Source of the DNA: a virus
Length of the DNA stretch: 64,000 nucleotides
Virus record (IMG/VR): IMGVR_UViG_3300009093_000036
Coordinates: 96,001 to 160,000 of that record
Direction: 5' to 3' (one strand)
A program made the translations under genes and the position numbers. Of this stretch, positions 43,892 through 63,602 are shown in pieces; position 1 is the stretch's first letter, and every line of letters starts with the position of its first letter. The notes beneath the pieces are model-generated. The model was not told the origin of the DNA and made no database searches. It saw only the letters and a list, made by a program, of their open reading frames with translations.

Positions 43892-46060
43892 CTACATGCC
43901 CGCCGGCGACGGCGGACGCATACCCGGCTGGACGCCAGCGTACCGAAGGGGAGTGGGTGTGGCGGTCGCCAGATGCTGGACGGCATCCACCCCTTTCTTT
44001 GCCCCCACGAGACCAGCACCGACAGCACCGACGGCACCAAGACCCAGCGCGAGACGGCCGTAGCCGCTGTGCTTGACCTGGTAGTCAGGATTCGCGAGAG
44101 CTCGGCCGAGCTCGGCGGCGGCCTTCAGGCTGCCCTGGTTGCCGATCATGTCACTCTGCCCTGCGACGATCGGCTCCTGAACCTTCGGCGCCGTCACACG
44201 TGCGATCGGCTTCGCGAGGGCGTGCGTGATGCCGGGGGCGACCAGACCCAGACCACCGATCTCGACGGCCGGATGATGCAGGGCGTGAGCGAGACCTTCG
44301 GCGACGGTGTGGCCCTCAGCAGCAAGAGCACCCATCCGCCCACCACGCAGCATCAGACGCTTCAGTCCGCCGGCGGCAGCATCGGCGAGGTACGGTGACG
44401 CGAGCGTCGCGATGCCGACGTCGTCAATGCGATCGGCGATGCGTCCAGTGCGGGGGTCCTCCGAGGCCGTCTTGCCCGGCATCGGACCGACGCCGCCGTA
44501 CTGGTGCGGCACCGCCATGTACCCCATCAAGCCCGTGCCGGCAGCCGCACCGACGAGACCGGCACGGTTCAGCCCCTGGTTCATCACGTTGTGCTGCTGT
44601 TCGAGACGGCCTGCTGCCTGCCGGAGCGCCTCTGCCTGCCCACCACGCGATGCCGCCACCGATTGAGCGAGCTCGGGCTTCATGGTCGCTGCCGGCGTCG
44701 AGGAGCCACCCCAGGCCGTCGGGGACATGACCTGCTTCTGCTGGGTGTTGAGGGCGATGCCTCCCGCCCCGCCTGCCCCGCCCGCGGCCCCGGGCTTGGC
44801 GGCGAGGGTGCCACGACCCAGCGCCGGCGGAGCTCCGGCGTGCATCGTCCCAGCGAGAGCGGGATCCGCGATCGTCTTGCCGGCGATCTGGTGAGCCTCC
44901 CGAGCCGCGATCTCCGCCTGACCCGCCTGAGCTCGCAGCGTGTTGAGCTGATGAGCCCCCTGCGTCTTGAGCGCCGAGATGCCAGCGCCGCCGGCGGCAC
45001 CAAGCCCAGCCCCAACGAGAGCTCCGCGAAGAGCTCCCTGTTGCCGCTGGCCTGGATCGGCGTGCATCAGACCGCCGAGACCGCCGGCGACGGCGCCGAT
45101 GCCTGCACCCACCCCAGCATGACCGAGGTGACTGATCGCTGTTGGCGAGACCGCGAGCGCGATCTTCTGGCCATGGTTGTCCTTGTCGAGCACCTTCATC
45201 TTGAACTCCTCGAAGGGCATCTCCTTCATCGAACCGAAGAAGCGGGGGTCGTTGTACTGCTTGAGGTAGGCAGCCTTCGCCTCCTCTGCGGAGTCGAACC
45301 CGAGCATCACCTTCTGCTCGTCGAACTTCGTCCAGGCGACACCGTCCTTCTTGATCTCACCCTCGGGCTTCTTCATCTGGTCGACCAAGAAGACCTTGTC
45401 CGACTCCTCGTTGGGGCCGAGGTAGACATCGACGTGGTCGCCATCGGTGCCCTTCGTCATACGGATGTAGCCGTAGTCGAAGTGCATGAAGGTGGAGCCC
45501 TTCTCCTTGCCGTGCGGGTCGTACCAGGAGCGCTTGCTGCCCTTGCGGTTCTCGATCGCGATGTCGAGGCCCTTGAACATCCGCTCGCCGTGGAGCTTGA
45601 AGTTCGAGAGCTTCGCCCCATCAGCGAAGCGGATGTCGTCCGTCGCTGACTTCTTCTCGGCGCGGTCCCGCTCCTGCTTCTCCTTGAGCTTCTTGGGGTT
45701 GTCCATGAAGTACTGGATCATGTCCCCGCACGACTTCTTCTCGCTCTCACCTTCGACCTTCTTCAGGCGGATGTAGTAGTCGGGCCGCTCGCGCAGATGA
45801 TCGATCGCGATCTGCTTGGCGACGGCGGGATGATCGGTGTGCTCCATCTCCACCTTCTCGCCGGCGTGGAGCTGAACCTTCGGTACCCCAGAGCCACTGT
45901 CGTGGGCGTGAGCGAGCAGGCCGCTCTTCTTGACGTGCTCGGGCAACGCCTTGATGTCCTTCGTCTCGTGAGCCCAGGCGATCGCAGTTCCCTTGGGGAG
46001 CTTCCCCTCCGCTTCCATCGCGAAGAACTTGCGCTGCTGTGCCTTGCTCTTGAAGGGCAT
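43892..46060 (-). CDS. modular virion-associated protein: DUF5661-like + pyrophosphatase-like (InPase) + glycine-zipper modules
   Basis: MPFKSKAQQR; GEKVEMEHTD...AIDHLRERPDYY; IAIENRKG...DYGYI..T.GTDGDHVDVY...KVMLGF; GAGIGAVAGGLGG. Confidence 0.75.
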   Translation of the reverse strand: MPFKSKAQQRKFFAMEAEGKLPKGTAIAWAHETKDIKALPEHVKKSGLLAHAHDSGSGVPKVQLHAGEKVEMEHTDHPAVAKQIAIDHLRERPDYYIRLKKVEGESEKKSCGDMIQYFMDNPKKLKEKQERDRAEKKSATDDIRFADGAKLSNFKLHGERMFKGLDIAIENRKGSKRSWYDPHGKEKGSTFMHFDYGYIRMTKGTDGDHVDVYLGPNEESDKVFLVDQMKKPEGEIKKDGVAWTKFDEQKVMLGFDSAEEAKAAYLKQYNDPRFFGSMKEMPFEEFKMKVLDKDNHGQKIALAVSPTAISHLGHAGVGAGIGAVAGGLGGLMHADPGQRQQGALRGALVGAGLGAAGGAGISALKTQGAHQLNTLRAQAGQAEIAAREAHQIAGKTIADPALAGTMHAGAPPALGRGTLAAKPGAAGGAGGAGGIALNTQQKQVMSPTAWGGSSTPAATMKPELAQSVAASRGGQAEALRQAAGRLEQQHNVMNQGLNRAGLVGAAAGTGLMGYMAVPHQYGGVGPMPGKTASEDPRTGRIADRIDDVGIATLASPYLADAAAGGLKRLMLRGGRMGALAAEGHTVAEGLAHALHHPAVEIGGLGLVAPGITHALAKPIARVTAPKVQEPIVAGQSDMIGNQGSLKAAAELGRALANPDYQVKHSGYGRLALGLGAVGAVGAGLVGAKKGVDAVQHLATATPTPLRYAGVQPGMRPPSPAGM

Positions 46061-50202: not shown

Positions 50203-53200
50203 TCAGACGATCAGCGTGATTTTGATCTCGTTGCAAGGATAGAAAACGCCCACGTCGATGTCGAGGAGCAGCGAGTCCGGCTGATCCGGGTTCTGCACGA
50301 GGCGCGAGACGTGGAAGCTCGCGAGGACCTTCTGGACGGTCAGGAAGCTGCCGAGCCCGTCGAGCGTCGTGCTGATCGAGCTCTGGAGGTTCTGCGAGAT
50401 GTTGAACCGGCCGATGTAGTTCCGCAGACCGCCGCGGAGGAACTTCGCCGTGAAGTCGAGCGCCGTGAGGATCGAGAACTCGCGCTCTTCGATCGTGTCG
50501 ATGGCGGACGTGAGCTGGTGCCGCGTCTGGATGGACTGGCCTGCGGCTTCCTGGAACATGTTCCAGAGGCCACCGCCGTCCATGATGCGGTACTGGATCT
50601 CACCGTAGCGATCGCTCGCACCGATGAGGCCCGTGAAGCCCTTGATGCCGACGTTCGTGAGCGGATCGGACGGGTTCTTCGACGCCGTCTTGCCGGCGAG
50701 CGCGGCGCAGACGTAGAAGCCCTCGATCTCCTGCTCTAGCCCATCGACCGTCGCCTTCGCCTTGTCGGGCGTGACGAAGATCATGCGGCGGTTCTTGTAG
50801 CCCTGCGGGATCGCGGCGTACGCGATCGCTTCCTCGGTGAGGTCCGCGAGCACGGTGCCGCGGATGAAGACCGAGAAGGGACGATCGACGATCGGGTTGG
50901 CGAACGCCGGCGAGCTGCCAGCGAAATAGAACCCGTCGGCGTTGTCCTCGCTGGTGCCGGCCGCGAGAGCGCCCGTGCTGACCGTGACGATCGAACCCGC
51001 CACCCCGGTGATGAGGTAGTTGTTCGTGTCGTCTTCGAGCTTGAGCACGATGCGATCGTCGATGGTGTACGGCGGGGCCGGGTGACCAGCCGCAGCGAGG
51101 AGAGCCGGCAGGTTCGCGAGACCCGTGTCGAACGTCGACACGCCGCCCGTGCTGTTGCCGAGCGAGCCCGAGCCGATGAGGTTGTTCGCCGTGCGCTCCG
51201 GACGGGGCGGGTTGTTGAAGACGACGCGTTCGAGACCGACCTCGGGGTCGCTCATCGCCGTGACGTGGGCATCCGCGAGGTCCGAGACCGTCGCGTCGTG
51301 CGTGAGCTGCGCGATCGCGTACACGTCCTTCGACTCGATGAACGTGTAGGCCTCCGCCCACGCCCCGAGCGTGCCGAAGGGCTCCGTCACCGTCGCCTCG
51401 CCGATGCCGAGACCGAACGTCTCCAGGCCCGAGGCGTTGAGCATCGCGAAGTACATGCCGAGGCCCAGGGGGTTCTCGGGGTTGATGGGCGACAGCTTCG
51501 ACTCCAGCGTGGTGAGGTCACCGATGCGGAGCAGGTTGCTGTTCGTGCCGGCGGCGGACACGTCGCGACGAAGCGCCGTGTAGCCGAGGTACAAGCCCAG
51601 GTCGACCGCGGCCGTGGGGGTGCCGTCAGGAGCACGGAAGATCTCGTGCTTCACGACGACTTCGCCAGAGGTCGCGTCGACCTGGAGATCGGCACTCGGA
51701 CGAGTCGTCGTCTGCGGACCCGTGAGACCGAGCGCGCGGATGTAGAAGTTGACCCACGTGGCGGTCAACTGGTACTCCGTGTCGAGACGAAGCCGCGTCA
51801 CGACGCCCGCCGGAGCGACCTCCGTGATGAGGCCGAGACGGAGACCGTTGCCGTAGACCTCGTCGCCCACCATCGGAGCGTACGGGTTGCCGACGTAGCG
51901 GTTCGCCGTGAGGCCGAGCGTGGTGAGTGCCGTCGAGAGCGAGTTGATGCGGATCACGCTCTCCTCGCCGCCCTCGGTCGTGGGCGAGCGGAGGACGAGC
52001 TTGTTCGCCCCGTTCAGCGACGCGACCGCAGCGCCTGCGGGCACCTGCCACTTCGTGTTGATGGCAGCCACTAGCGCCGCAGCGTTCGCGATCGTCGGAC
52101 CGATGATGAGCGTCTGCTCCGCCTCGCCGTCGATGCTCATGATGAGCGACTGACCGGGCGTCGCGAACGGGCCGCCGGCACCGTACGTGATGGTCGTGAG
52201 GTCCACGGTGGCCTGGACGCGAGCACGGCTGCGACGGCCTGCCGCGTAGTCGCCGACGACCAGGCCGAGGTTGCCGGACGTCGCGGTGCCGCCCGTGCGC
52301 TCGAACGACGAGCCCGGGCCGGTCGTGCCGGAGGTGAGGACGAGGTGGTTGCTCGCCCCGAGCGACGCGACGGTCGTACCGAAGGCCGCGTTGATCTGCG
52401 AGATGATGTCCGCCGCCGAGGCTGCCGCCGAGAAGTTGACGGTGACCGGGCCGGCGCCGTCCTTCGAGAAGATGGCGCTCGTGCTGTTCAGCGCGGAGAA
52501 CGTCGTCGAGAGGTCGGCGGTACCCGTGAGGACCGCGGCACCATCCGTGAAGTTCTGGCCGGCGAACGTGAGGTACGGCGAGAGGTTGTCGCCATCACCA
52601 TCGTTGAAGACGCTGACCGCCGCGGTCGCACCACGCAGGAACGTGGTCGTGCGGCTGACCTCGACGAAGTTGCCGCCACCGATCGCCGCGAACACGCGCA
52701 CCGTCGAGAAGTCGAGCGTGAGCTCGTCGAGGTTGCTGCGCGGATCCGGGTAGTTCTCCAGGCCGACGTCGACCTTGAAGTTGTTGTTGTAGCCGCCACG
52801 GCCCGTCTCCGTGTAGCCACCACCACGCAAGTTCAGCACGGTGAGGCCGGTGCCGCCCATGATCGAGAGCGTCGCGAACGGACCCGTGGCCACCGAGTGG
52901 AGAACGATGCGCTGCTGCGCACCGCTCGTCTCGATCGCGACGAGCAATCCGACGATGTCGAGCGAGTCGATGTACGCCTTCACCTCTTCGACCGTCGGGT
53001 TCGCCGGCGAAGCCGGGAACGTGATGGTCTGGGTGGGGCCGTTGTTCACGCTGAGCTGGAGGGTGAGGCCCCCGAGCGTCGCGTACTGGAACGGCGTCGA
53101 GACGTACGGGAACTCGATCCGTGCCGGCAGCGCGAGCAGCGCCTGGCTGTTCAGCACGCCGGTGTCCAGGACAGCCTGAACGACCTCCTTCGCGACACCC

Positions 53201-53304
53201 ATCACGCAGGCGGGCATCGTGGGAACGAAGATCGTGGGGGTGACCTGACGGAACTCGGTGAAAACCTTGACGCCCGGCCGGGGAAGCATGTTCGGAGTGG
53301 TCAT
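50203..53304 (-). CDS. contractile tail sheath protein with large insertion domains
   Basis: PRPGVKVFTE N-terminus; C-terminal RHQLT...REFSI...DF.AK..R...YIGRFNI...DVGVFYPCNEIKITLIV. Confidence 0.9.
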   Translation of the reverse strand: MTTPNMLPRPGVKVFTEFRQVTPTIFVPTMPACVMGVAKEVVQAVLDTGVLNSQALLALPARIEFPYVSTPFQYATLGGLTLQLSVNNGPTQTITFPASPANPTVEEVKAYIDSLDIVGLLVAIETSGAQQRIVLHSVATGPFATLSIMGGTGLTVLNLRGGGYTETGRGGYNNNFKVDVGLENYPDPRSNLDELTLDFSTVRVFAAIGGGNFVEVSRTTTFLRGATAAVSVFNDGDGDNLSPYLTFAGQNFTDGAAVLTGTADLSTTFSALNSTSAIFSKDGAGPVTVNFSAAASAADIISQINAAFGTTVASLGASNHLVLTSGTTGPGSSFERTGGTATSGNLGLVVGDYAAGRRSRARVQATVDLTTITYGAGGPFATPGQSLIMSIDGEAEQTLIIGPTIANAAALVAAINTKWQVPAGAAVASLNGANKLVLRSPTTEGGEESVIRINSLSTALTTLGLTANRYVGNPYAPMVGDEVYGNGLRLGLITEVAPAGVVTRLRLDTEYQLTATWVNFYIRALGLTGPQTTTRPSADLQVDATSGEVVVKHEIFRAPDGTPTAAVDLGLYLGYTALRRDVSAAGTNSNLLRIGDLTTLESKLSPINPENPLGLGMYFAMLNASGLETFGLGIGEATVTEPFGTLGAWAEAYTFIESKDVYAIAQLTHDATVSDLADAHVTAMSDPEVGLERVVFNNPPRPERTANNLIGSGSLGNSTGGVSTFDTGLANLPALLAAAGHPAPPYTIDDRIVLKLEDDTNNYLITGVAGSIVTVSTGALAAGTSEDNADGFYFAGSSPAFANPIVDRPFSVFIRGTVLADLTEEAIAYAAIPQGYKNRRMIFVTPDKAKATVDGLEQEIEGFYVCAALAGKTASKNPSDPLTNVGIKGFTGLIGASDRYGEIQYRIMDGGGLWNMFQEAAGQSIQTRHQLTSAIDTIEEREFSILTALDFTAKFLRGGLRNYIGRFNISQNLQSSISTTLDGLGSFLTVQKVLASFHVSRLVQNPDQPDSLLLDIDVGVFYPCNEIKITLIV

Positions 53305-55001: not shown

Positions 55002-55913
55002 TCAGCTCTCGTTCGGGTCGTAGGGCGTGGTGCCGTAGTACGCGAACACGTTCGGCGTCTTCTCGTCGACCGTGTTGTTGAAGTTGTGCGGGTTCGTGTA
55101 CATGCGACCCGGACTTGCTTGGATGTCCTTCAGTGGCGACTGAAGATTGAGTGGCAACTTGTATTCTACGTCGGTCGGCATGATTGCGCGAAGCGTGAGC
55201 TCCTGCTTGATCGGGGCTCGAAGGCGCTCCGATGTCACGACATTCACGACTCGCCAGCGCTGGTTCTCCAGCTCGGTGAGGACGTCCCCTACCTTCACCA
55301 CGGGGTAGAAGGTGAGACGACCCGTCGTCATCTGGTCCTGGTTCTTCTGCAACGACTGGAGCTGAACGGCCTTGCCCACCGGGTCGATCTGCGCCCACAC
55401 CTCGATCGGGTTGAGGTAGCCACGCACGAAGCTGGTGTCGTAGCAAGAGATGCAGTTCGAGCGCTTCTTCGCCGAGAGCTTGGAGTCCCAGCAGTTCTTG
55501 CAGCGCATCCCGAAGGTGCGTCGCGGGAACAGCCAGCACATGCGGCCGATGACCTGTGTGAAGGCGGTCTGCTCCAGACGACGAATCGCCGAAGCGATGA
55601 GGTCAGGTTCCGCTTCCTGGATGACCGGGCCGAAGATCGCGGTCTCGTTGCTCGCCTTGTGACGAACACGAAGTTGGTACCAGAACTGCCGGAACTTGTA
55701 CGACGTCGGGACACGACGGTCGACGAAGATGAAGCGGTCCTCGAACTCCTCGGTGATCGGATCGAAGGGACCTTCGCCGCTCTCGGAGCGGAACACCTGG
55801 AAGGTGTAGTCCAGCACCTCGACGTCGGTGACACTCGTCTCCCACGTCACTTCCTGGACCGCGATGTCCAGAGACCGCACACGAAGCCGATCGATTTTCA
55901 GCGCGACAGGCAT
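55002..55913 (-). CDS. putative neck/head-closure protein (FN3-like N-terminus, Zn finger)
   Basis: RRTFGMRCKNCWD...NCISCYDTSFVRGY; VKVGDVL.E..N.RWRV. Confidence 0.65.
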   Translation of the reverse strand: MPVALKIDRLRVRSLDIAVQEVTWETSVTDVEVLDYTFQVFRSESGEGPFDPITEEFEDRFIFVDRRVPTSYKFRQFWYQLRVRHKASNETAIFGPVIQEAEPDLIASAIRRLEQTAFTQVIGRMCWLFPRRTFGMRCKNCWDSKLSAKKRSNCISCYDTSFVRGYLNPIEVWAQIDPVGKAVQLQSLQKNQDQMTTGRLTFYPVVKVGDVLTELENQRWRVVNVVTSERLRAPIKQELTLRAIMPTDVEYKLPLNLQSPLKDIQASPGRMYTNPHNFNNTVDEKTPNVFAYYGTTPYDPNES

Positions 55914-56812
55914 CAGCGAGAAGATCCCACGGCAGCGCCCATCTGTCGTGCGTCATACCGGGCCTTCTGCACTGCGGACTCCCCGGCCTTTGCCAGGCGC
56001 TTGGCTGCCGAGCTCTGGCGAAGCGCTTCGAGGGTCTCCGTGACGCTCTTCGGCGTCAGCGTGTTCGGCGGGTTGAACGCCGCCGTCTTCTTGGGGAGCA
56101 GCCCCGCTTGCTGGGCGAGCTGTTCGAGGAGCTCGGGAACGGTGACTCCGTTCACCTTGAGCTTCTTGGTCTTCTTCACCGGATCGGCAGCACCGAACAC
56201 GTTGGGCGTGCCGTAGCCGACCTCGTTCCGGGGCTGGTTCTTCATCCGCCCCATCGAGACTTCGACTTCCTTCGGCAAGGACTGCGAGTACTCACGCTCG
56301 ATCGCAGCAGCCAGCTTGCCGAACGGCATCTGGGAGAGGTGATCGAGGACGCTTGCACTTCCGATGACCGGAGCTCCGTGCTGGACGGCGCCCTGGATGA
56401 CCTTCTGTGGGCCGAGCTGCTGAGCAGCATGCTGGAGCACTGACCCTTGAGAGAACGCCATCGTGGGCGTCTTCTTGGCGACGACTCCTGCCACCTGCGA
56501 GGCCGCAGCTTGGGCCTTCTGAGCGGAGAGCGTCAGCGCATGCTGAGCGGCCTGCGTCCCTGCCGACGACCCCAAGTTCTTGTAGTAGCCGGCGAGCTCG
56601 GCGACTGCGGCACGACGAGCAGGATCGACACCCTGCTGTGCGATGCGAGCAGCCTGGTTGACGTGCTTGCCGACCTGACCCGCTTCGAGCCCGATGGTGC
56701 TCATCAGGTTCGACTTCTTGACCTTGCCGAGGGCAGTCCACGGCGCACGCCGTACGTGAGGACGTACGGCCACCGCGGCTGCCTTCGTGATGAGGTCGAG
56801 GTCGAACATCAC
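55913..56812 (-). CDS. Ala-rich virion-module protein
   Basis: 299 aa; KAAA/KLAA/KTAA motifs. Confidence 0.7.
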   Translation of the reverse strand: MMFDLDLITKAAAVAVRPHVRRAPWTALGKVKKSNLMSTIGLEAGQVGKHVNQAARIAQQGVDPARRAAVAELAGYYKNLGSSAGTQAAQHALTLSAQKAQAAASQVAGVVAKKTPTMAFSQGSVLQHAAQQLGPQKVIQGAVQHGAPVIGSASVLDHLSQMPFGKLAAAIEREYSQSLPKEVEVSMGRMKNQPRNEVGYGTPNVFGAADPVKKTKKLKVNGVTVPELLEQLAQQAGLLPKKTAAFNPPNTLTPKSVTETLEALRQSSAAKRLAKAGESAVQKARYDARQMGAAVGSSR

Positions 56813-57750
56813 TTCCTCAGCGAGGACTGGATGAGCTCGGCGAGGCTGGCGGTCTTCCCGTCCTGCACCTGCCGAAGGGCACGACCACCCTCGACTGCGA
56901 TCGGAGCGCCGTACGCGGCACCGATCATCGAGCCGATGCCACGAGCGAAGCCGGGGTCGTGCATCTTGAGCACCTTCGCGGCGCCGTGTCCGACGAGAGC
57001 ACCCATCGCGGCACCGCCGCCGGCACCCGCGGCGCCCATGAGAGCGCCCTGGCCACCGTCAGCCAGCGAACCACCGAGACCGCCACCGATCGCGGAGCCG
57101 ATCATCGACTTGGGGGTGAAGTCCAGCGAGTGACCGAAGCCGGGGGAGCCGAGGAAGTGACCGGCGGTCGCGCCGATGCTCGCCCTGTCGAAGCGCTTCT
57201 TCTGATCCGTCTGCTCCTTGGTCTTCTCCTTGGCCGCGAACTTCGTGATGAGCGAAGCGAGCTTGCCAGCGGCCGGCTCCTGCACCGGAGCACCGCCCGC
57301 AGCGCCGCCACCGATCTCCGCACCGAGCTGACCGCCGGCTGCGGGATCGGGGGTACCGATCACGGCCTGCCCCGGAGGAGTCGGCTGACCGACACCCATC
57401 ACCTTCATCTTGTGAAGCTGGATGGTGAGCCCGAGCTTCTGGAGACGCATCGCCTCGCGCTCGTCGCACTCCTTCGAGTAGTCGTACATCGGCTGCTGAG
57501 CAGACCGAGCCATGCGCTCCTGGAGATGGCGCTGCTCCATCGCGAGCTCCTGCTCGCAGAGAGCGATCGCCTGCGGAGCGAGGGGCGAGCCATCGAAGGC
57601 TTGGAGGAACTTCTCGTCCATGGCGCCCTCGTGGAAGGCACGCTTGAACGCGAAGCGGTCGTACGCGTTCGGTTCGACCACCTCGATCGGAGTGGCCGAG
57701 GCCGTCTTCGCGCCGAAGGTGCTGATCAAGAATGCGTTGAGCTCGTCCAT
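56809..57750 (-). CDS. glycine-zipper virion-module protein
   Basis: MDELNAF...KTAS; IGSAIGGGLGG...GAAGAGGGAAMGALVG. Confidence 0.7.
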   Translation of the reverse strand: MDELNAFLISTFGAKTASATPIEVVEPNAYDRFAFKRAFHEGAMDEKFLQAFDGSPLAPQAIALCEQELAMEQRHLQERMARSAQQPMYDYSKECDEREAMRLQKLGLTIQLHKMKVMGVGQPTPPGQAVIGTPDPAAGGQLGAEIGGGAAGGAPVQEPAAGKLASLITKFAAKEKTKEQTDQKKRFDRASIGATAGHFLGSPGFGHSLDFTPKSMIGSAIGGGLGGSLADGGQGALMGAAGAGGGAAMGALVGHGAAKVLKMHDPGFARGIGSMIGAAYGAPIAVEGGRALRQVQDGKTASLAELIQSSLRK

Positions 57751-57760
57751 GGTTGCTCCT

Positions 57761-60289
57761 TCAGTATTGCGACGGATCGTTGGGGGAAGCGGTGAGCGCC
57801 TTCGTACCGAGGATGCCGGTACCGAGGCCAGCGACGAACGCCGGCAGGTGCTCGCGAAGATGCGGGCCGAGAGCCTGAACACCGCGATGTGCAGAGGCGA
57901 CGCCGTGGTTGACGGCGGCGTTCACCGCAGCTTCGACAGTGTCGCCGGCACGATGCGAGCTCGTCTTCGCACGACGGATCCCCTCGGCCACGGACTCCGC
58001 CATGTCGGACTTGCGCTGAGCGCGATCGTGCATGCCCTTGGCGGCGAGGAGGCCTCCGCCGGCGAGAGCCGCGGCGCCCGCGTTCGGAGCGTGCTTCGCA
58101 AAAGCCTCGGTCGCCGCCTCGCCCATGCCGTGAGCGATGCTGCGTCCGGTCGCACGACCCACGGAGTCGACGACTCCCGCGCTCTTGTCGCGGTTCGCCA
58201 TCGCACCGCCGGCGAGAGCGAGGCCACCAGCCGCCGCACCCGCCGCCGGCAGGTACGGACGAGCCTTCTGGATGAGAGCTCCGAGGCCGCTCGCAGCAGG
58301 CGCAGCAGCCGCACCGACGGCGCCACGCACACCACGCTTGCCCACGATCGTCGCGACGTCGACCGAGGTTTTCACCGTGACGTGCGTGCCGGGCTTGCCG
58401 CCCTTGTCGTCGCCCTTGGCCTCACCACCGCCGGAGTCACCCGACGGCTGCTGTTCCTGGCCTCCTGCGGCCTGCTCCTGACCCCCCGGTGCAGAACCCT
58501 GGGAATCCTGCCCCGGGGTTCCTTCTTGACCGGGAGCGACGCCCGTCTGTGCAGCGAGCTCGGCCTCCGCCTGCTGCTGCGGAGTGGCCGGCATCCCCTG
58601 AGCGGCGAGGTCGCTGACCGTGGCTGCGGACTCGGCGACCGGGTCCTGCATCACGAAGTTGGCGAGCTCCTGACGCATCTGATTGACGCGCATGCCGAGC
58701 TGCATCTTCTGGATGGAGTGATCCGCCGCACGGCCTTCCGCTTCCGCGGCCTGCTGCGTCGCCATCATCGCCTGCTGCGAGTCCATCTGGGACTGCTGCG
58801 TGAGCTGCTCGACCTGCTGCTGGGCCTGCATGAGCTGCTGCTGGGCAGCCTGGGCTTCCGCCTGCGCCTGCTGAGCTGCCTGCGAGGCCTGCATCGCGAC
58901 GGTCTTGGCGTGCGAAGCCTCGGCCATCGCCTGCGCCGCACCGAGCTGCTGCTCACGCTCGATGTACGCCTCGGGGGAGTCGGCGTTCGGCATCACCATA
59001 TCCGACTTCTTCTCCTGCTCCTTGTGCTTCTTGAAGAAGTCGGTGCCGTTCGACAGCACGGCACCTCCGACGTAGGCCGCGGACTTCGCCTTCTCGATGA
59101 GGTCGACCAGCGACACCGGAGCCTCGACCGGCTTGACCGAGACGTCCTTCGGCGACTTCGTGTTGGGCGACGTCTTCTGGACGTCCGGCTTCTCGGAGCG
59201 CAGAGCCGCGGGCGACAGAGGCGTCAGCTCCACACGGACCTGGTCCTTGTGGTGGATGACGTCCATGTCCTTGTTGAGGTCGGCGATGCGCTTCTGGAGG
59301 AAGCCCTTCATCGCCGCCTTCTTCTCGTGCTCGGCGTGGATGCCGGGGAACTTCTTCTCCACGGCGGCACGCACCTTCGCCTTCTCGTCGGAGGTGCCGT
59401 GCATGCCCACCATCCCGAGAGCAGCGAGAGCGTGATCCTTGTCATGGATGGGGTACTTGCGTTCCGCGGGGAACACGAAGTTGCTGTCCTTGATCTCGGA
59501 CCGGGCGCCGGCGGTGAGGTCGGCGGCCTTCTTGTCCTTCTCCTTGCCGGAGTAGGAGGGGTCCATGCCGGCACGACGGAGCTGCTCGTACGTCGCGACC
59601 GCAGCGGCCTTCGGCTGCTCGGGCGTCGTCTCGACCTGCACCTTCGTCGACGCCGGCTGCGCCTGAGCGGGCTGCTCGGTCTCGGCCGGAGCTTCGGCCG
59701 TGGGCATGGCAGGCAGAGCCGTGGGCTCGACGAGCTGCCAGAGCTCGTCCTGGTGCTCCTCCTCGCGCTGGAGGAACTGCTCGATCGTGAACTTCATGGG
59801 CGTGTCGCCGCAGATGCTGTGGAGCTGCTTCCACAGCGTGAGCCCCATCTGCTCGACGACGATCATCGCCTGCACGATCTCGTTCGGATCGTGAAGCGGC
59901 TCCGGCGGCGGGTACGGCGGGATCGAGACACCACCGGGCGACAGCACGCTCATGCGGCGCAGCAGGTAGTCGGCATGCTCCAGCTCGTGGCTGGCGTGCT
60001 CCATGAACTCCTCCGCGATCCCCTCGTGCGAGAGACCACGCATCATGTTCGCGTAGTAGACGTAGTACGTCTGCGTCTTGAACTCGTTCGAGACCATCTG
60101 CGCGATGAGCTCGACGGCCTGCGGAAGCGGAACGAGGAACGGGCCCTCGACCTCGCCGCCAGGTGCCGGCATCTCGCCCTCTGCCATCTTCCGGATCCCG
60201 GCGATGAACAGCGAGCCGTCGACGAGCCCGATGGGGTTCGTCGGCTTGAAGGACATGATCAGGGTCTTGTCGAGGTCCATGATGCTCAC
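57761..60289 (-). CDS. modular head-region protein: bacterioferritin-like domain + DUF6582-like + Gln-rich coiled coil + Gly/Ala helices
   Basis: E69, E102xxH105, E146, E176xxH179; LTAGARSEIKDSNFVFPAERKYPIHDKDHA. Confidence 0.8.
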   Translation of the reverse strand: MSIMDLDKTLIMSFKPTNPIGLVDGSLFIAGIRKMAEGEMPAPGGEVEGPFLVPLPQAVELIAQMVSNEFKTQTYYVYYANMMRGLSHEGIAEEFMEHASHELEHADYLLRRMSVLSPGGVSIPPYPPPEPLHDPNEIVQAMIVVEQMGLTLWKQLHSICGDTPMKFTIEQFLQREEEHQDELWQLVEPTALPAMPTAEAPAETEQPAQAQPASTKVQVETTPEQPKAAAVATYEQLRRAGMDPSYSGKEKDKKAADLTAGARSEIKDSNFVFPAERKYPIHDKDHALAALGMVGMHGTSDEKAKVRAAVEKKFPGIHAEHEKKAAMKGFLQKRIADLNKDMDVIHHKDQVRVELTPLSPAALRSEKPDVQKTSPNTKSPKDVSVKPVEAPVSLVDLIEKAKSAAYVGGAVLSNGTDFFKKHKEQEKKSDMVMPNADSPEAYIEREQQLGAAQAMAEASHAKTVAMQASQAAQQAQAEAQAAQQQLMQAQQQVEQLTQQSQMDSQQAMMATQQAAEAEGRAADHSIQKMQLGMRVNQMRQELANFVMQDPVAESAATVSDLAAQGMPATPQQQAEAELAAQTGVAPGQEGTPGQDSQGSAPGGQEQAAGGQEQQPSGDSGGGEAKGDDKGGKPGTHVTVKTSVDVATIVGKRGVRGAVGAAAAPAASGLGALIQKARPYLPAAGAAAGGLALAGGAMANRDKSAGVVDSVGRATGRSIAHGMGEAATEAFAKHAPNAGAAALAGGGLLAAKGMHDRAQRKSDMAESVAEGIRRAKTSSHRAGDTVEAAVNAAVNHGVASAHRGVQALGPHLREHLPAFVAGLGTGILGTKALTASPNDPSQY

Positions 60290-62489: not shown

Positions 62490-63602
62490 TCAGAAGGAGA
62501 CGACGCCCGGGAAGAACGTGCGATCCGCGGCGCGGTTGTTCGGCGCCCCGAGATCCTCCTCCACCTTCGGCGAGACCGAGGAGAGGATCGAGTCCGTGTT
62601 CAGCGACGTCGCGTCACCGGAGTAGAGCTCCAGCTTGCGGACCGACGCCACGTTGACGATCGACATGCCGACGTCCTTCCACGCGACGAACTTGATCAGG
62701 TTGATCACCTTGTCGATGTAGAACTTGACGTTGTTCAGGATGTAGAAGCGACCCAGGAACTCCGGCGACGTGTACGCGTACACGTTGCCCGGACGGAGGA
62801 TGTCCGTCTTGATGGTCCGGATCAGCTTCTTGCCGAGCAGGGTGTTGAACTGCCAGCCCTGAACGGTGGTCTCGCTCTGCACCTTCGAGCCCTGGTCCTC
62901 GATCGTCCACTGGAGGACGTCGTCGAGATCCTTGCTCGTGATGAGGATGAGCTCGCACTCCAAGCGGTTGCCGTCGAGTAGCTTCATCAGGTTGACGATG
63001 TCCGGGCGCTGGATCGGACGAACGATCGCGTCGTTCGTCGAAGCCGCACGCGCGAGCTCGCCCTTGATGACCGAGAACTCCACCGGCGGCGTGCCGCTCT
63101 GGAGACCCGTCGCGTTGAGCGCCGTCGTCGAGCCGTTGGCCTCGGTCTGGAGCGCCTGCACCGCGGCCTCGGAGTAGATCAGGAACTGACGGTCCTGGAT
63201 CTCGCCGATGTCGCGGATCGAGTTCTGCTCGACCACCTTCCCGAGCGGGTACGGGTAAGCCAGGAACTCCTGCTCCGGCTTCTGGTACATCTCGCTCATG
63301 ATGGTGATGAACGGCACCTCGACGCGCTCGCCGCGGAGCAGCCGAGCCGAGGGCTCGCCACGGAAGGTGACCACCATGGCGCGCGAACGCGGCTCCAGGT
63401 GCTCGATCTTCACGAGCGAGTCGTGGTTGACCGAGATCTGGCAGTCGCTGCGCGTGACGGTCTGGGGCGGGAGGACCCGCTCCAGGAACGACGCCTCGCG
63501 CAGGCGATCTCGGATGTAGCCCCCGACCTCCGCCGCGAGCTTCGTCTTCGCGTCGGGGTTCGAGAGGTGCTGAATGGTCAGCTCCTTTGCATCGTGCAGC
63601 AT
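62490..63602 (-). CDS. major capsid protein (HK97-like fold)
   Basis: 370 aa; YIRDRLREASFLERVLPP; IGEIQDRQFL; follows a decoration-like gene and precedes adaptor genes. Confidence 0.8.
   Translation of the reverse strand: MLHDAKELTIQHLSNPDAKTKLAAEVGGYIRDRLREASFLERVLPPQTVTRSDCQISVNHDSLVKIEHLEPRSRAMVVTFRGEPSARLLRGERVEVPFITIMSEMYQKPEQEFLAYPYPLGKVVEQNSIRDIGEIQDRQFLIYSEAAVQALQTEANGSTTALNATGLQSGTPPVEFSVIKGELARAASTNDAIVRPIQRPDIVNLMKLLDGNRLECELILITSKDLDDVLQWTIEDQGSKVQSETTVQGWQFNTLLGKKLIRTIKTDILRPGNVYAYTSPEFLGRFYILNNVKFYIDKVINLIKFVAWKDVGMSIVNVASVRKLELYSGDATSLNTDSILSSVSPKVEEDLGAPNNRAADRTFFPGVVSF

Follow-up and report, generated by a model that had tools for sequence, protein, structure and literature searches.

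A conserved ferritin-type di-iron domain in a modular, putatively internal virion protein of uncultured large phages

The stretch of DNA discussed here (the window, 64,000 nucleotides in full) corresponds to bases 96001–160000 of a 195,355-bp virus record in IMG/VR, IMGVR_UViG_3300009093_000036, which CheckV rates as 100% complete, and the terminase, capsid and sheath genes found in this genome make its source a bona fide tailed phage, specifically a myovirus. On the minus strand, the fourth gene after that of the major capsid protein, just where the initial annotation of this DNA had placed it, encodes a long polyprotein with a ferritin-like domain near its N-terminus, and it is this ferritin-fusion gene (57761–60289) that concerns us. 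The same annotation had described the product as a bacterioferritin-type ferroxidase domain fused into a head-morphogenesis protein. The ferritin half of that description has stood up very well; the other half is not established, there being no match to a known morphogenesis family anywhere in the protein. Residue numbers are counted from GTG 60289 throughout.

To begin with the sequence of the ferritin domain itself, Pfam Ferritin (PF00210) matches residues 60–187 with an E-value of 4e-12 and 46.7 bits against a cut-off of 24.5, far ahead of Pfam Rubrerythrin (E 0.005), and it matches all 47 of the family members that we aligned. The six di-iron ligands listed in the initial annotation (E69, E102, H105, E146, E176 and H179) are all present and are invariant in these 47 homologues, down to 40% identity, as are Y76, Y79, H98, W153 and E170; Y76 follows the first Glu by seven residues, the same offset as Tyr25 of bacterioferritin. 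Also as annotated, residue 103, which corresponds to the haem-ligand Met of bacterioferritin, is a Leu, within a family consensus of ELEHA. An AlphaFold2 model of residues 1–200, made with the 47 aligned sequences, has a mean predicted local distance difference test score (pLDDT) of 87, rising to 95–99 over helices 55–85, 89–116, 135–159 and 164–185, and takes the form of a compact four-helix bundle of 135 amino acids (aa) with a long B–C crossover loop. By alignment and model alike, all six ligands lie within one bundle, giving an intrasubunit di-iron centre. Foldseek, which had been suggested as a check of residues 56–187, bears out the ferritin fold: the top matches, all at probability 1.00, are bacterioferritin 1jgc (root-mean-square deviation 2.0; template-modelling score by target 0.74), a diatom ferritin and the Dps-like (DPSL) proteins of Sulfolobus, Pyrococcus and Pseudomonas. 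Among solved chains the nearest by sequence are PA4880 (E 5e-6) and the Sulfolobus DPSL (E 2e-4), with bacterioferritins next at E 0.04–0.9. All this shows the first module to be a true ferritin-superfamily di-iron domain, with a centre of the bacterioferritin/DPSL type inside each subunit, and the domain, judged by its aligned homologues, is clearly under strong purifying selection.

The domain is also predicted to pair with itself. Two-copy structure prediction on residues 38–195 gave a score of 0.58, where the best of three controls reached 0.00; in a benchmark, the 0.58 mark was attained by 20 of 30 proteins solved as one-chain pairs, compared with 1 of 23 single-chain structures. The two-copy runs agreed in at least 84% of contacts, with a partner pLDDT of at least 83, and the predicted interface is symmetric, bringing together helices A and B and the BC loop and setting L103 against L103. 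This predicted interface is that of the ferritin two-fold dimer, from which a cage is not implied, and the pass may reflect the likeness of the domain to solved ferritin dimers.

Beyond the ferritin domain, the protein is a chain of further modules joined by linkers, whose positions are collected in Table 1. Only two of them are family-wide cores, namely the ferritin domain and the Gln/Ala-rich helical domain at residues 438–575; the DUF6582-like module is found in only part of the family, and the Gly/Ala-rich tail is variable. The DUF6582-like motif reported in the initial annotation is a mixed case: with Pfam the stretch scores 19.4 bits, under the cut-off of 27.3, while phrog_16160 matches residues 256–317 at E 1e-10 and the structural neighbours in the Atlas are DUF6582 clusters. 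Of DUF6582 itself we found no mention in the literature. As for the Gln-rich coiled coil and hydrophobic helices that had been described further on, the Gln-rich helical region is there and the C-terminus is Gly/Ala-rich and weakly hydrophobic, its segments reaching a maximum Kyte–Doolittle hydropathy of 1.2–1.4. When the C-terminal modules were compared by blastp with the genome's own proteins, no paralogues emerged.

Table 1. The ferritin-fusion gene, its modules and selected neighbours (window positions)
Feature	Position	Strand	Details
Whole open reading frame of the ferritin-fusion polyprotein	57761..60289	-	842 aa from GTG 60289, or likelier 839 aa from ATG 60280
N-terminal leader, residues 1–37	60179..60289	-	Two predicted helices; terminal K34-M-A-E37 (nt 60179–60190) is a candidate propeptide cleavage motif
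Ferritin-like di-iron four-helix bundle, residues 55–187	59729..60127	-	Ligands E69, E102-x-x-H105, E146, E176-x-x-H179; plus Y76
Pro/Ala/Gln-rich linker after ferritin domain	59522..59611	-	K227-A-A-A and K253-K-A-A motifs
DUF6582-like / phrog_16160 module, residues 256–317	59339..59524	-	Followed by K323-K-A-A motif (nt 59312–59323)
K402-S-A-A motif	59075..59086	-	Precedes Gln-rich domain; K-x-A at 400–402 kept in family
Gln/Ala-rich helical (coiled-coil-like) domain, residues 438–575	58565..58978	-	Second conserved core of family
Residues 576–842	57764..58564	-	Low-complexity Gly/Gln/Glu linker, then Gly/Ala-rich, weakly hydrophobic, glycine-zipper-like C-terminus
Major capsid protein gene	62490..63602	-	phrog_2522; conserved K-L-A-A-E at residues 21–25
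Next gene, p313	56809..57750	-	313 aa from ATG 57750; N-terminal K-T-A-S motif, Gly/Ala-rich tail
Tail sheath gene	50203..53304	-	End of conserved capsid-to-sheath block

The reading frame itself is secure. Translation of the ferritin-fusion frame runs through 842 codons without a stop, and its codon-position GC (0.71/0.46/0.86) marks this minus-strand frame as the coding one; a 933-aa open reading frame on the opposite strand was considered and set aside as a high-GC shadow, the codon-position GC favouring the minus strand. The gene likely starts at ATG 60280 rather than GTG 60289, to judge from an AGGGG ribosome-binding site ahead of the ATG, a database twin of 839 aa and homologues that begin M.DLDK. 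For the next gene downstream, the listed start at GTG 57882 would overlap the ferritin-fusion gene by 121 nt, and by its sequence context the true start is almost certainly ATG 57750, which follows an AGGAG site and lies 10 nt past the ferritin-fusion stop. The product of this gene, p313, is probably of the same class as the ferritin-fusion protein.

How widely is this arrangement found? Searched exhaustively with phmmer, a set of 1.84 billion representatives yielded 316 matches at E<=1e-3, with 196 cluster representatives at E<=1e-10; one relative, at 89% identity, comes from the IMG sample behind UViG 3300049792. The best 150 matches are almost all proteins of 400–1340 aa in which the ferritin domain begins at about residue 40–90, and therefore, by their sequences, these proteins make up a clade of fusions that is specific to phages and far removed from the ferritins of cells. 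Searching with residues 425–842 instead leads back to ferritin-bearing proteins, the exceptions being one marginal match and a protein of 499 aa encoded on a 2.3-kb contig.

Of particular interest is how firmly the gene keeps its place. On the minus strand the order is p601, several scaffold-like helical proteins, capsid, p360, p169, p159, the ferritin fusion, p313, p299, a Zn-ribbon protein, p230, p278 and the 1033-aa sheath, with the terminase gene further upstream of this head block. A survey of synteny with capsid genes had been recommended, and we carried it out on 18 loci (17 from IMG/VR and one metagenome-assembled contig from NCBI), whose capsid proteins share 58–98% identity. In every locus that is long enough, the order capsid, p169, ferritin fusion, Zn-ribbon protein, p278 and sheath is kept, which shows the ferritin-fusion gene to be a fixed part of the capsid-to-sheath block. 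Its neighbours between capsid and sheath belong to no Pfam or PHROG family. The position of the gene upstream of the sheath gene also rules out that it encodes the tape measure. Among 50,697 cultured-phage records, the capsid protein has a sole relative, found in Salmonella phage Arash, itself an orphan, with 27% identity across 80% of the protein's length, and the clade is for this reason one without a cultured representative. Arash has no ferritin-fusion gene, and its giant structural protein gp229, which sits in a similar position, was rejected as a counterpart, having no similarity to the fusion protein and no Pfam domain.

Some other genes of the region deserve a brief mention. Of the genes that separate ferritin fusion from sheath, the one for the Zn-ribbon protein (55002–55913, minus strand; 303 aa, CxxC...CxxC) is the best conserved, with 43–94% identity and a copy in all loci; its product matches no family and is probably a neck or head-completion protein. 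At 43892–46060 on the same strand lies the gene for a 722-aa protein that begins MPFKSKAQ and has Gly/Ala-rich tails, and the equivalent gene of a related contig (21845–22322) has a Pfam InPase domain, of a type found in polyvalent proteins delivered by the virion. A plus-strand gene for a GyrB/topoisomerase II large subunit (genome 166770–168719; phrog_543, E 3e-159) splits the minus-strand packaging and head block between terminase and p268.

New in our analysis is the observation that the ferritin domain is flanked by K-x-A-[A/E/S] motifs. The ferritin-fusion protein has five of them, at 34, 227, 253, 323 and 402, which are module boundaries. Counted over the capsid/tail block on the minus strand (43892–70220 in window numbering; genome 139892–166220), the motif occurs 55 times in 7,815 aa where composition predicts 13, so that it is about four-fold enriched in the head module, as against 74 occurrences in 50,724 aa, with 48 expected, in the remaining genome. 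Two scaffold-like proteins contain 10 and 11 copies and the C-terminal half of p601 contains seven; the motif is found as well in the two genes that follow the ferritin fusion and at capsid residue 21, while it is missing from the neck genes and appears once in the sheath gene. Of a stricter form, K[LIMV]A(A)E, the genome has 19 copies, nine of them between p601 and the ferritin-fusion gene. Four distant loci have the same distribution, and at the capsid N-terminus K-(L/I)-A-(A)-E is kept in 15 of 15 loci. With regard to a single scaffold-like protein, that of 277 aa (genome 161756–162589, minus strand), only residues 131–156 are kept in distant relatives, at 69–75% identity, and this conserved stretch starts with K-L-A-E (131–134) and ends with K-I-A-E (152–155).

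We also asked where the motif lies relative to the ferritin domain in 164 full-length representatives of the family. It occurs upstream of the domain in 111 of them, mostly 18–25 aa ahead of it, and within 90 aa downstream in 129, as compared with inside the domain in nine; the linkers around the motifs are otherwise poorly conserved. Composition-preserving shuffles gave 14.8+-3.7 upstream motifs where 121 were observed, and 51+-6.8 downstream where 205 were observed, a comparison whose significance is overstated, given that the family members are related and that K-x-A falls in Ala/Lys-rich linkers. The herpesvirus assemblin cleaves at (V/L/I)-x-A|S, and phage prohead proteases have the same fold, which by analogy makes K-x-A|x plausible as a prohead-protease site. 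We accordingly treat the motif as a candidate site of this kind for the clade, and its flanking placement suggests that the ferritin domain may be excised by a putative prohead protease. Peptidase_S78 is absent from the genome, and the sole match to Peptidase_S77 (the T4 gp21 type) is sub-threshold, at 17.9 bits and E 1.7e-4 (genome 64236–64406). That match falls within a 612-aa open reading frame (genome ~64023–65861, minus strand) far from the head module.

It is instructive to set the phage domain beside its better known relatives. The closest in kind are the DPSL proteins (PA4880, 8w1d/8w1e; S. solfataricus, 2clb; P. furiosus, 7stw), which like the phage domain have a buried intrasubunit di-iron centre with bacterioferritin-type ligands and no haem. 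They differ in being free-standing cellular proteins of ~170–190 aa that form 12-mers, whereas the phage domain, at ~22–24% identity, is the N-terminal module of a protein of 480–1340 aa; the Cys pair of the archaeal (thioferritin-type) DPSL is not conserved in the phage family, and there is no Cys among its invariant or near-invariant columns. The P. aeruginosa protein PA4880 assembles as a 12-mer, every subunit of which contains a centre of bacterioferritin type; it can use either O2 or H2O2 to oxidise Fe2+, and in vitro it also nicks DNA (PMC11150526). Bacterioferritin (E. coli; R. capsulatus, 1jgc) has a ligand spacing of 33/43/33, against 33/44/30 in the phage domain, and its two-fold dimer uses the same face as the predicted phage dimer. 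The phage domain is nevertheless not a true bacterioferritin: the haem Met (Met52 in E. coli) is Leu throughout the phage family, and in place of a fifth (E) helix the phage model ends at helix 164–185 and passes into a Pro/Ala-rich linker. The 24-mer cage of bacterioferritin would moreover be impossible with a 650-aa C-terminal tail on each subunit, unless the domain were cut free. Neither, by its ligand pattern, is it a canonical Dps, in which the site lies between two subunits at the dimer interface, the phage pattern being intrasubunit as in bacterioferritin and DPSL.

The initial annotation had drawn a parallel with encapsulins, and this holds at the level of function only, where it is putative: in both cases a ferritin-superfamily iron oxidase adjoins an HK97-type shell gene. 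Encapsulin ferritin cargo is EncFtn or Flp provided with a C-terminal targeting peptide. EncFtn is a two-helix half-ferritin with its site between subunits, whereas the phage unit is a full four-helix bundle of the DPSL/bacterioferritin type at the N-terminus of an 842-aa protein, and the encapsulin shell is tail-less, whereas here the shell is that of a phage whose 195-kb genome includes terminase and sheath genes. As a full bundle in a real phage, the domain is therefore not an encapsulin-type cargo. In overall design, the ferritin fusion resembles the internal proteins of T4 and the polyvalent proteins, being multi-module and encoded among virion genes, with linkers, candidate protease sites and a leader that ends in a putative cleavage motif. 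The likeness has its bounds, in that the leader is common among cargo proteins in T4 and has no counterpart in other proteins of this genome, and the T4 motif is L/I-x-E rather than K-x-A-[AES]. Polyvalent proteins combine several unrelated domains in one polypeptide that is delivered with the DNA; the ferritin fusion has a comparable modular build and gene position, with one module recognisable as an enzyme domain. Ferritin-type proteins have been reported from other phages, namely gp346 in particles of phage G, by proteomics (PMC12484599), and the ferritin-fold protein gp217 of Vi01-like phages, by mass spectrometry of phage preparations (PMC10892097). These are small free-standing proteins of unrelated phages, with no significant sequence similarity to the domain and no place in a conserved head polyprotein, although gp346 is a weak fold match to it (rank 28).

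What, then, might such a protein do? In the explanation that we favour, and hold with moderate confidence when all its parts are taken together, the product of the gene is an internal virion protein of modular build, belonging to a clade of uncultured ~170–200-kb myoviruses. The fusion protein would enter the procapsid together with the scaffold-like proteins, and a prohead protease would then cut at K-x-A-[A/E/S] sites, removing a leader of ~37 aa and freeing an acidic ferritin unit of ~190 aa that would form at least ferritin-type dimers. The unit would oxidise Fe2+ with O2 or H2O2, and so would limit Fenton damage to the tightly packed genome, either in the particle or at entry, while the Gly/Ala-rich C-terminal modules would exit with the DNA. 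Loading into the capsid has indirect support from the K-x-A-[AES] motifs common to the scaffold-like proteins and the capsid N-terminus, and on this sequence evidence we think that a small ferritin is probably carried inside the phage particle.

Several points weigh against this explanation, the overstated significance of the shuffle comparison being one of them. About a third of family members have no upstream motif as we defined it, and a T4-style common targeting sequence is unlikely, because a profile of residues 1–58 matches no other protein in the 195-kb genome. The p601 protein, considered as a candidate for the protease, is strongly conserved over its N-terminal 290 aa, with invariant His, Ser, Asp and Cys, but it gave no Pfam match and no significant PHROG or PDB-profile match, and its AlphaFold2 model has a pLDDT of 41. 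Among the 50,697 phage records, megablast and tblastn searches found the gene, the protein and the domain absent from cultured phages. Finally, direct binding of DNA by the ferritin unit is unlikely on sequence grounds, because the unit is acidic, with an isoelectric point of 4.5.

Other readings of the same evidence have to be considered, beginning with those that concern the place of action. The ferritin module might be mainly an injected effector, part of a polyprotein whose glycine-zipper C-terminus leaves the head with the DNA, acting in the host early in infection to sequester or oxidise iron, to blunt a peroxide burst or to nick DNA as PA4880 does in vitro (PMC11150526). This overlaps our explanation and differs only in the site of action; it draws on an architecture like that of virion-delivered polyvalent proteins (PMC5512222), on the K-x-A motifs and Gly/Ala-rich tails common to neighbouring genes and on the InPase-type polyvalent protein in the same module of the related contig. 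Given that the domain catalogue of the polyvalent-protein survey does not include ferritin or Dps (PMC5512222), and that the hydrophobic segments of the tail are weak, we regard it as a possibility on the unlikely side. That the fusion protein stays out of the virion altogether, as a late cytoplasmic iron-handling protein that happens to sit in a structural operon, is very hard to believe: other phages do have free-standing ferritin and Dps genes, but here the gene keeps to its capsid-to-sheath position across 18 loci, the domain always comes joined to helical and Gly-rich modules that are not enzymatic, and the protein bears the head-module motif.

The remaining alternatives concern what the domain does rather than where it does it. 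The initial annotation had offered a scaffold core as an alternative, and a four-helix bundle could serve as a structural element of head core, scaffold or neck in which the metal site only stabilises the fold without catalysis, as might be argued from the company of structural genes, the fusion to a conserved coiled-coil-like domain and the predicted dimer. We think this improbable, because the metal ligands are invariant: the full catalytic set and a nearby Tyr are the same in over 160 diverged representatives, a bundle with a structural role alone would have no need of the complete ferroxidase set, and the flanking motifs suggest a domain that is freed from the rest of the protein. Hardly better placed is the idea of a di-iron enzyme with a non-iron substrate, such as a rubrerythrin-like peroxidase or an oxygenase whose target is DNA or a small molecule, for which ferritin would be only the nearest relative in fold. 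The E/ExxH/E/ExxH ligand set is common to many di-iron carboxylate enzymes, Pfam Rubrerythrin also matches 34 of the 47 members, and the clade is far from cellular ferritins, as its small number of matches (316) attests; against this stand the much better score for Ferritin than for Rubrerythrin, a compact bundle whose long BC loop is nearest to bacterioferritin and DPSL, and the lack of a rubredoxin domain or substrate-pocket insertion. A bolder extension of our own explanation, in which the freed unit would assemble into a Dps-like 12-mer (or larger) cage and mineralise iron inside the phage head, we consider doubtful. Were it true, the capsid would serve an entire clade of large phages as an iron compartment of the encapsulin kind, and virions would bring a store of iron into the environment and the host.

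Ferritin cargo in HK97-fold shells is already familiar from encapsulins, and we found no description in the literature of such cargo as a conserved part of real phage particles. In at least 196 sequence clusters from uncultured large phages, an intact ferroxidase-type domain is kept within a fixed gene of the structural module, and this conservation points to a general need for control of iron or peroxide chemistry near packaged DNA or at entry. The K-x-A-[A/E/S] motif furnishes a candidate cleavage site for a head-maturation system that has not been described. More broadly, the ferritin-fusion family is relevant to the question of how encapsulins and phage capsids have ended up with cargo types in common, as well as to claims of iron carriage by phage particles in nature.

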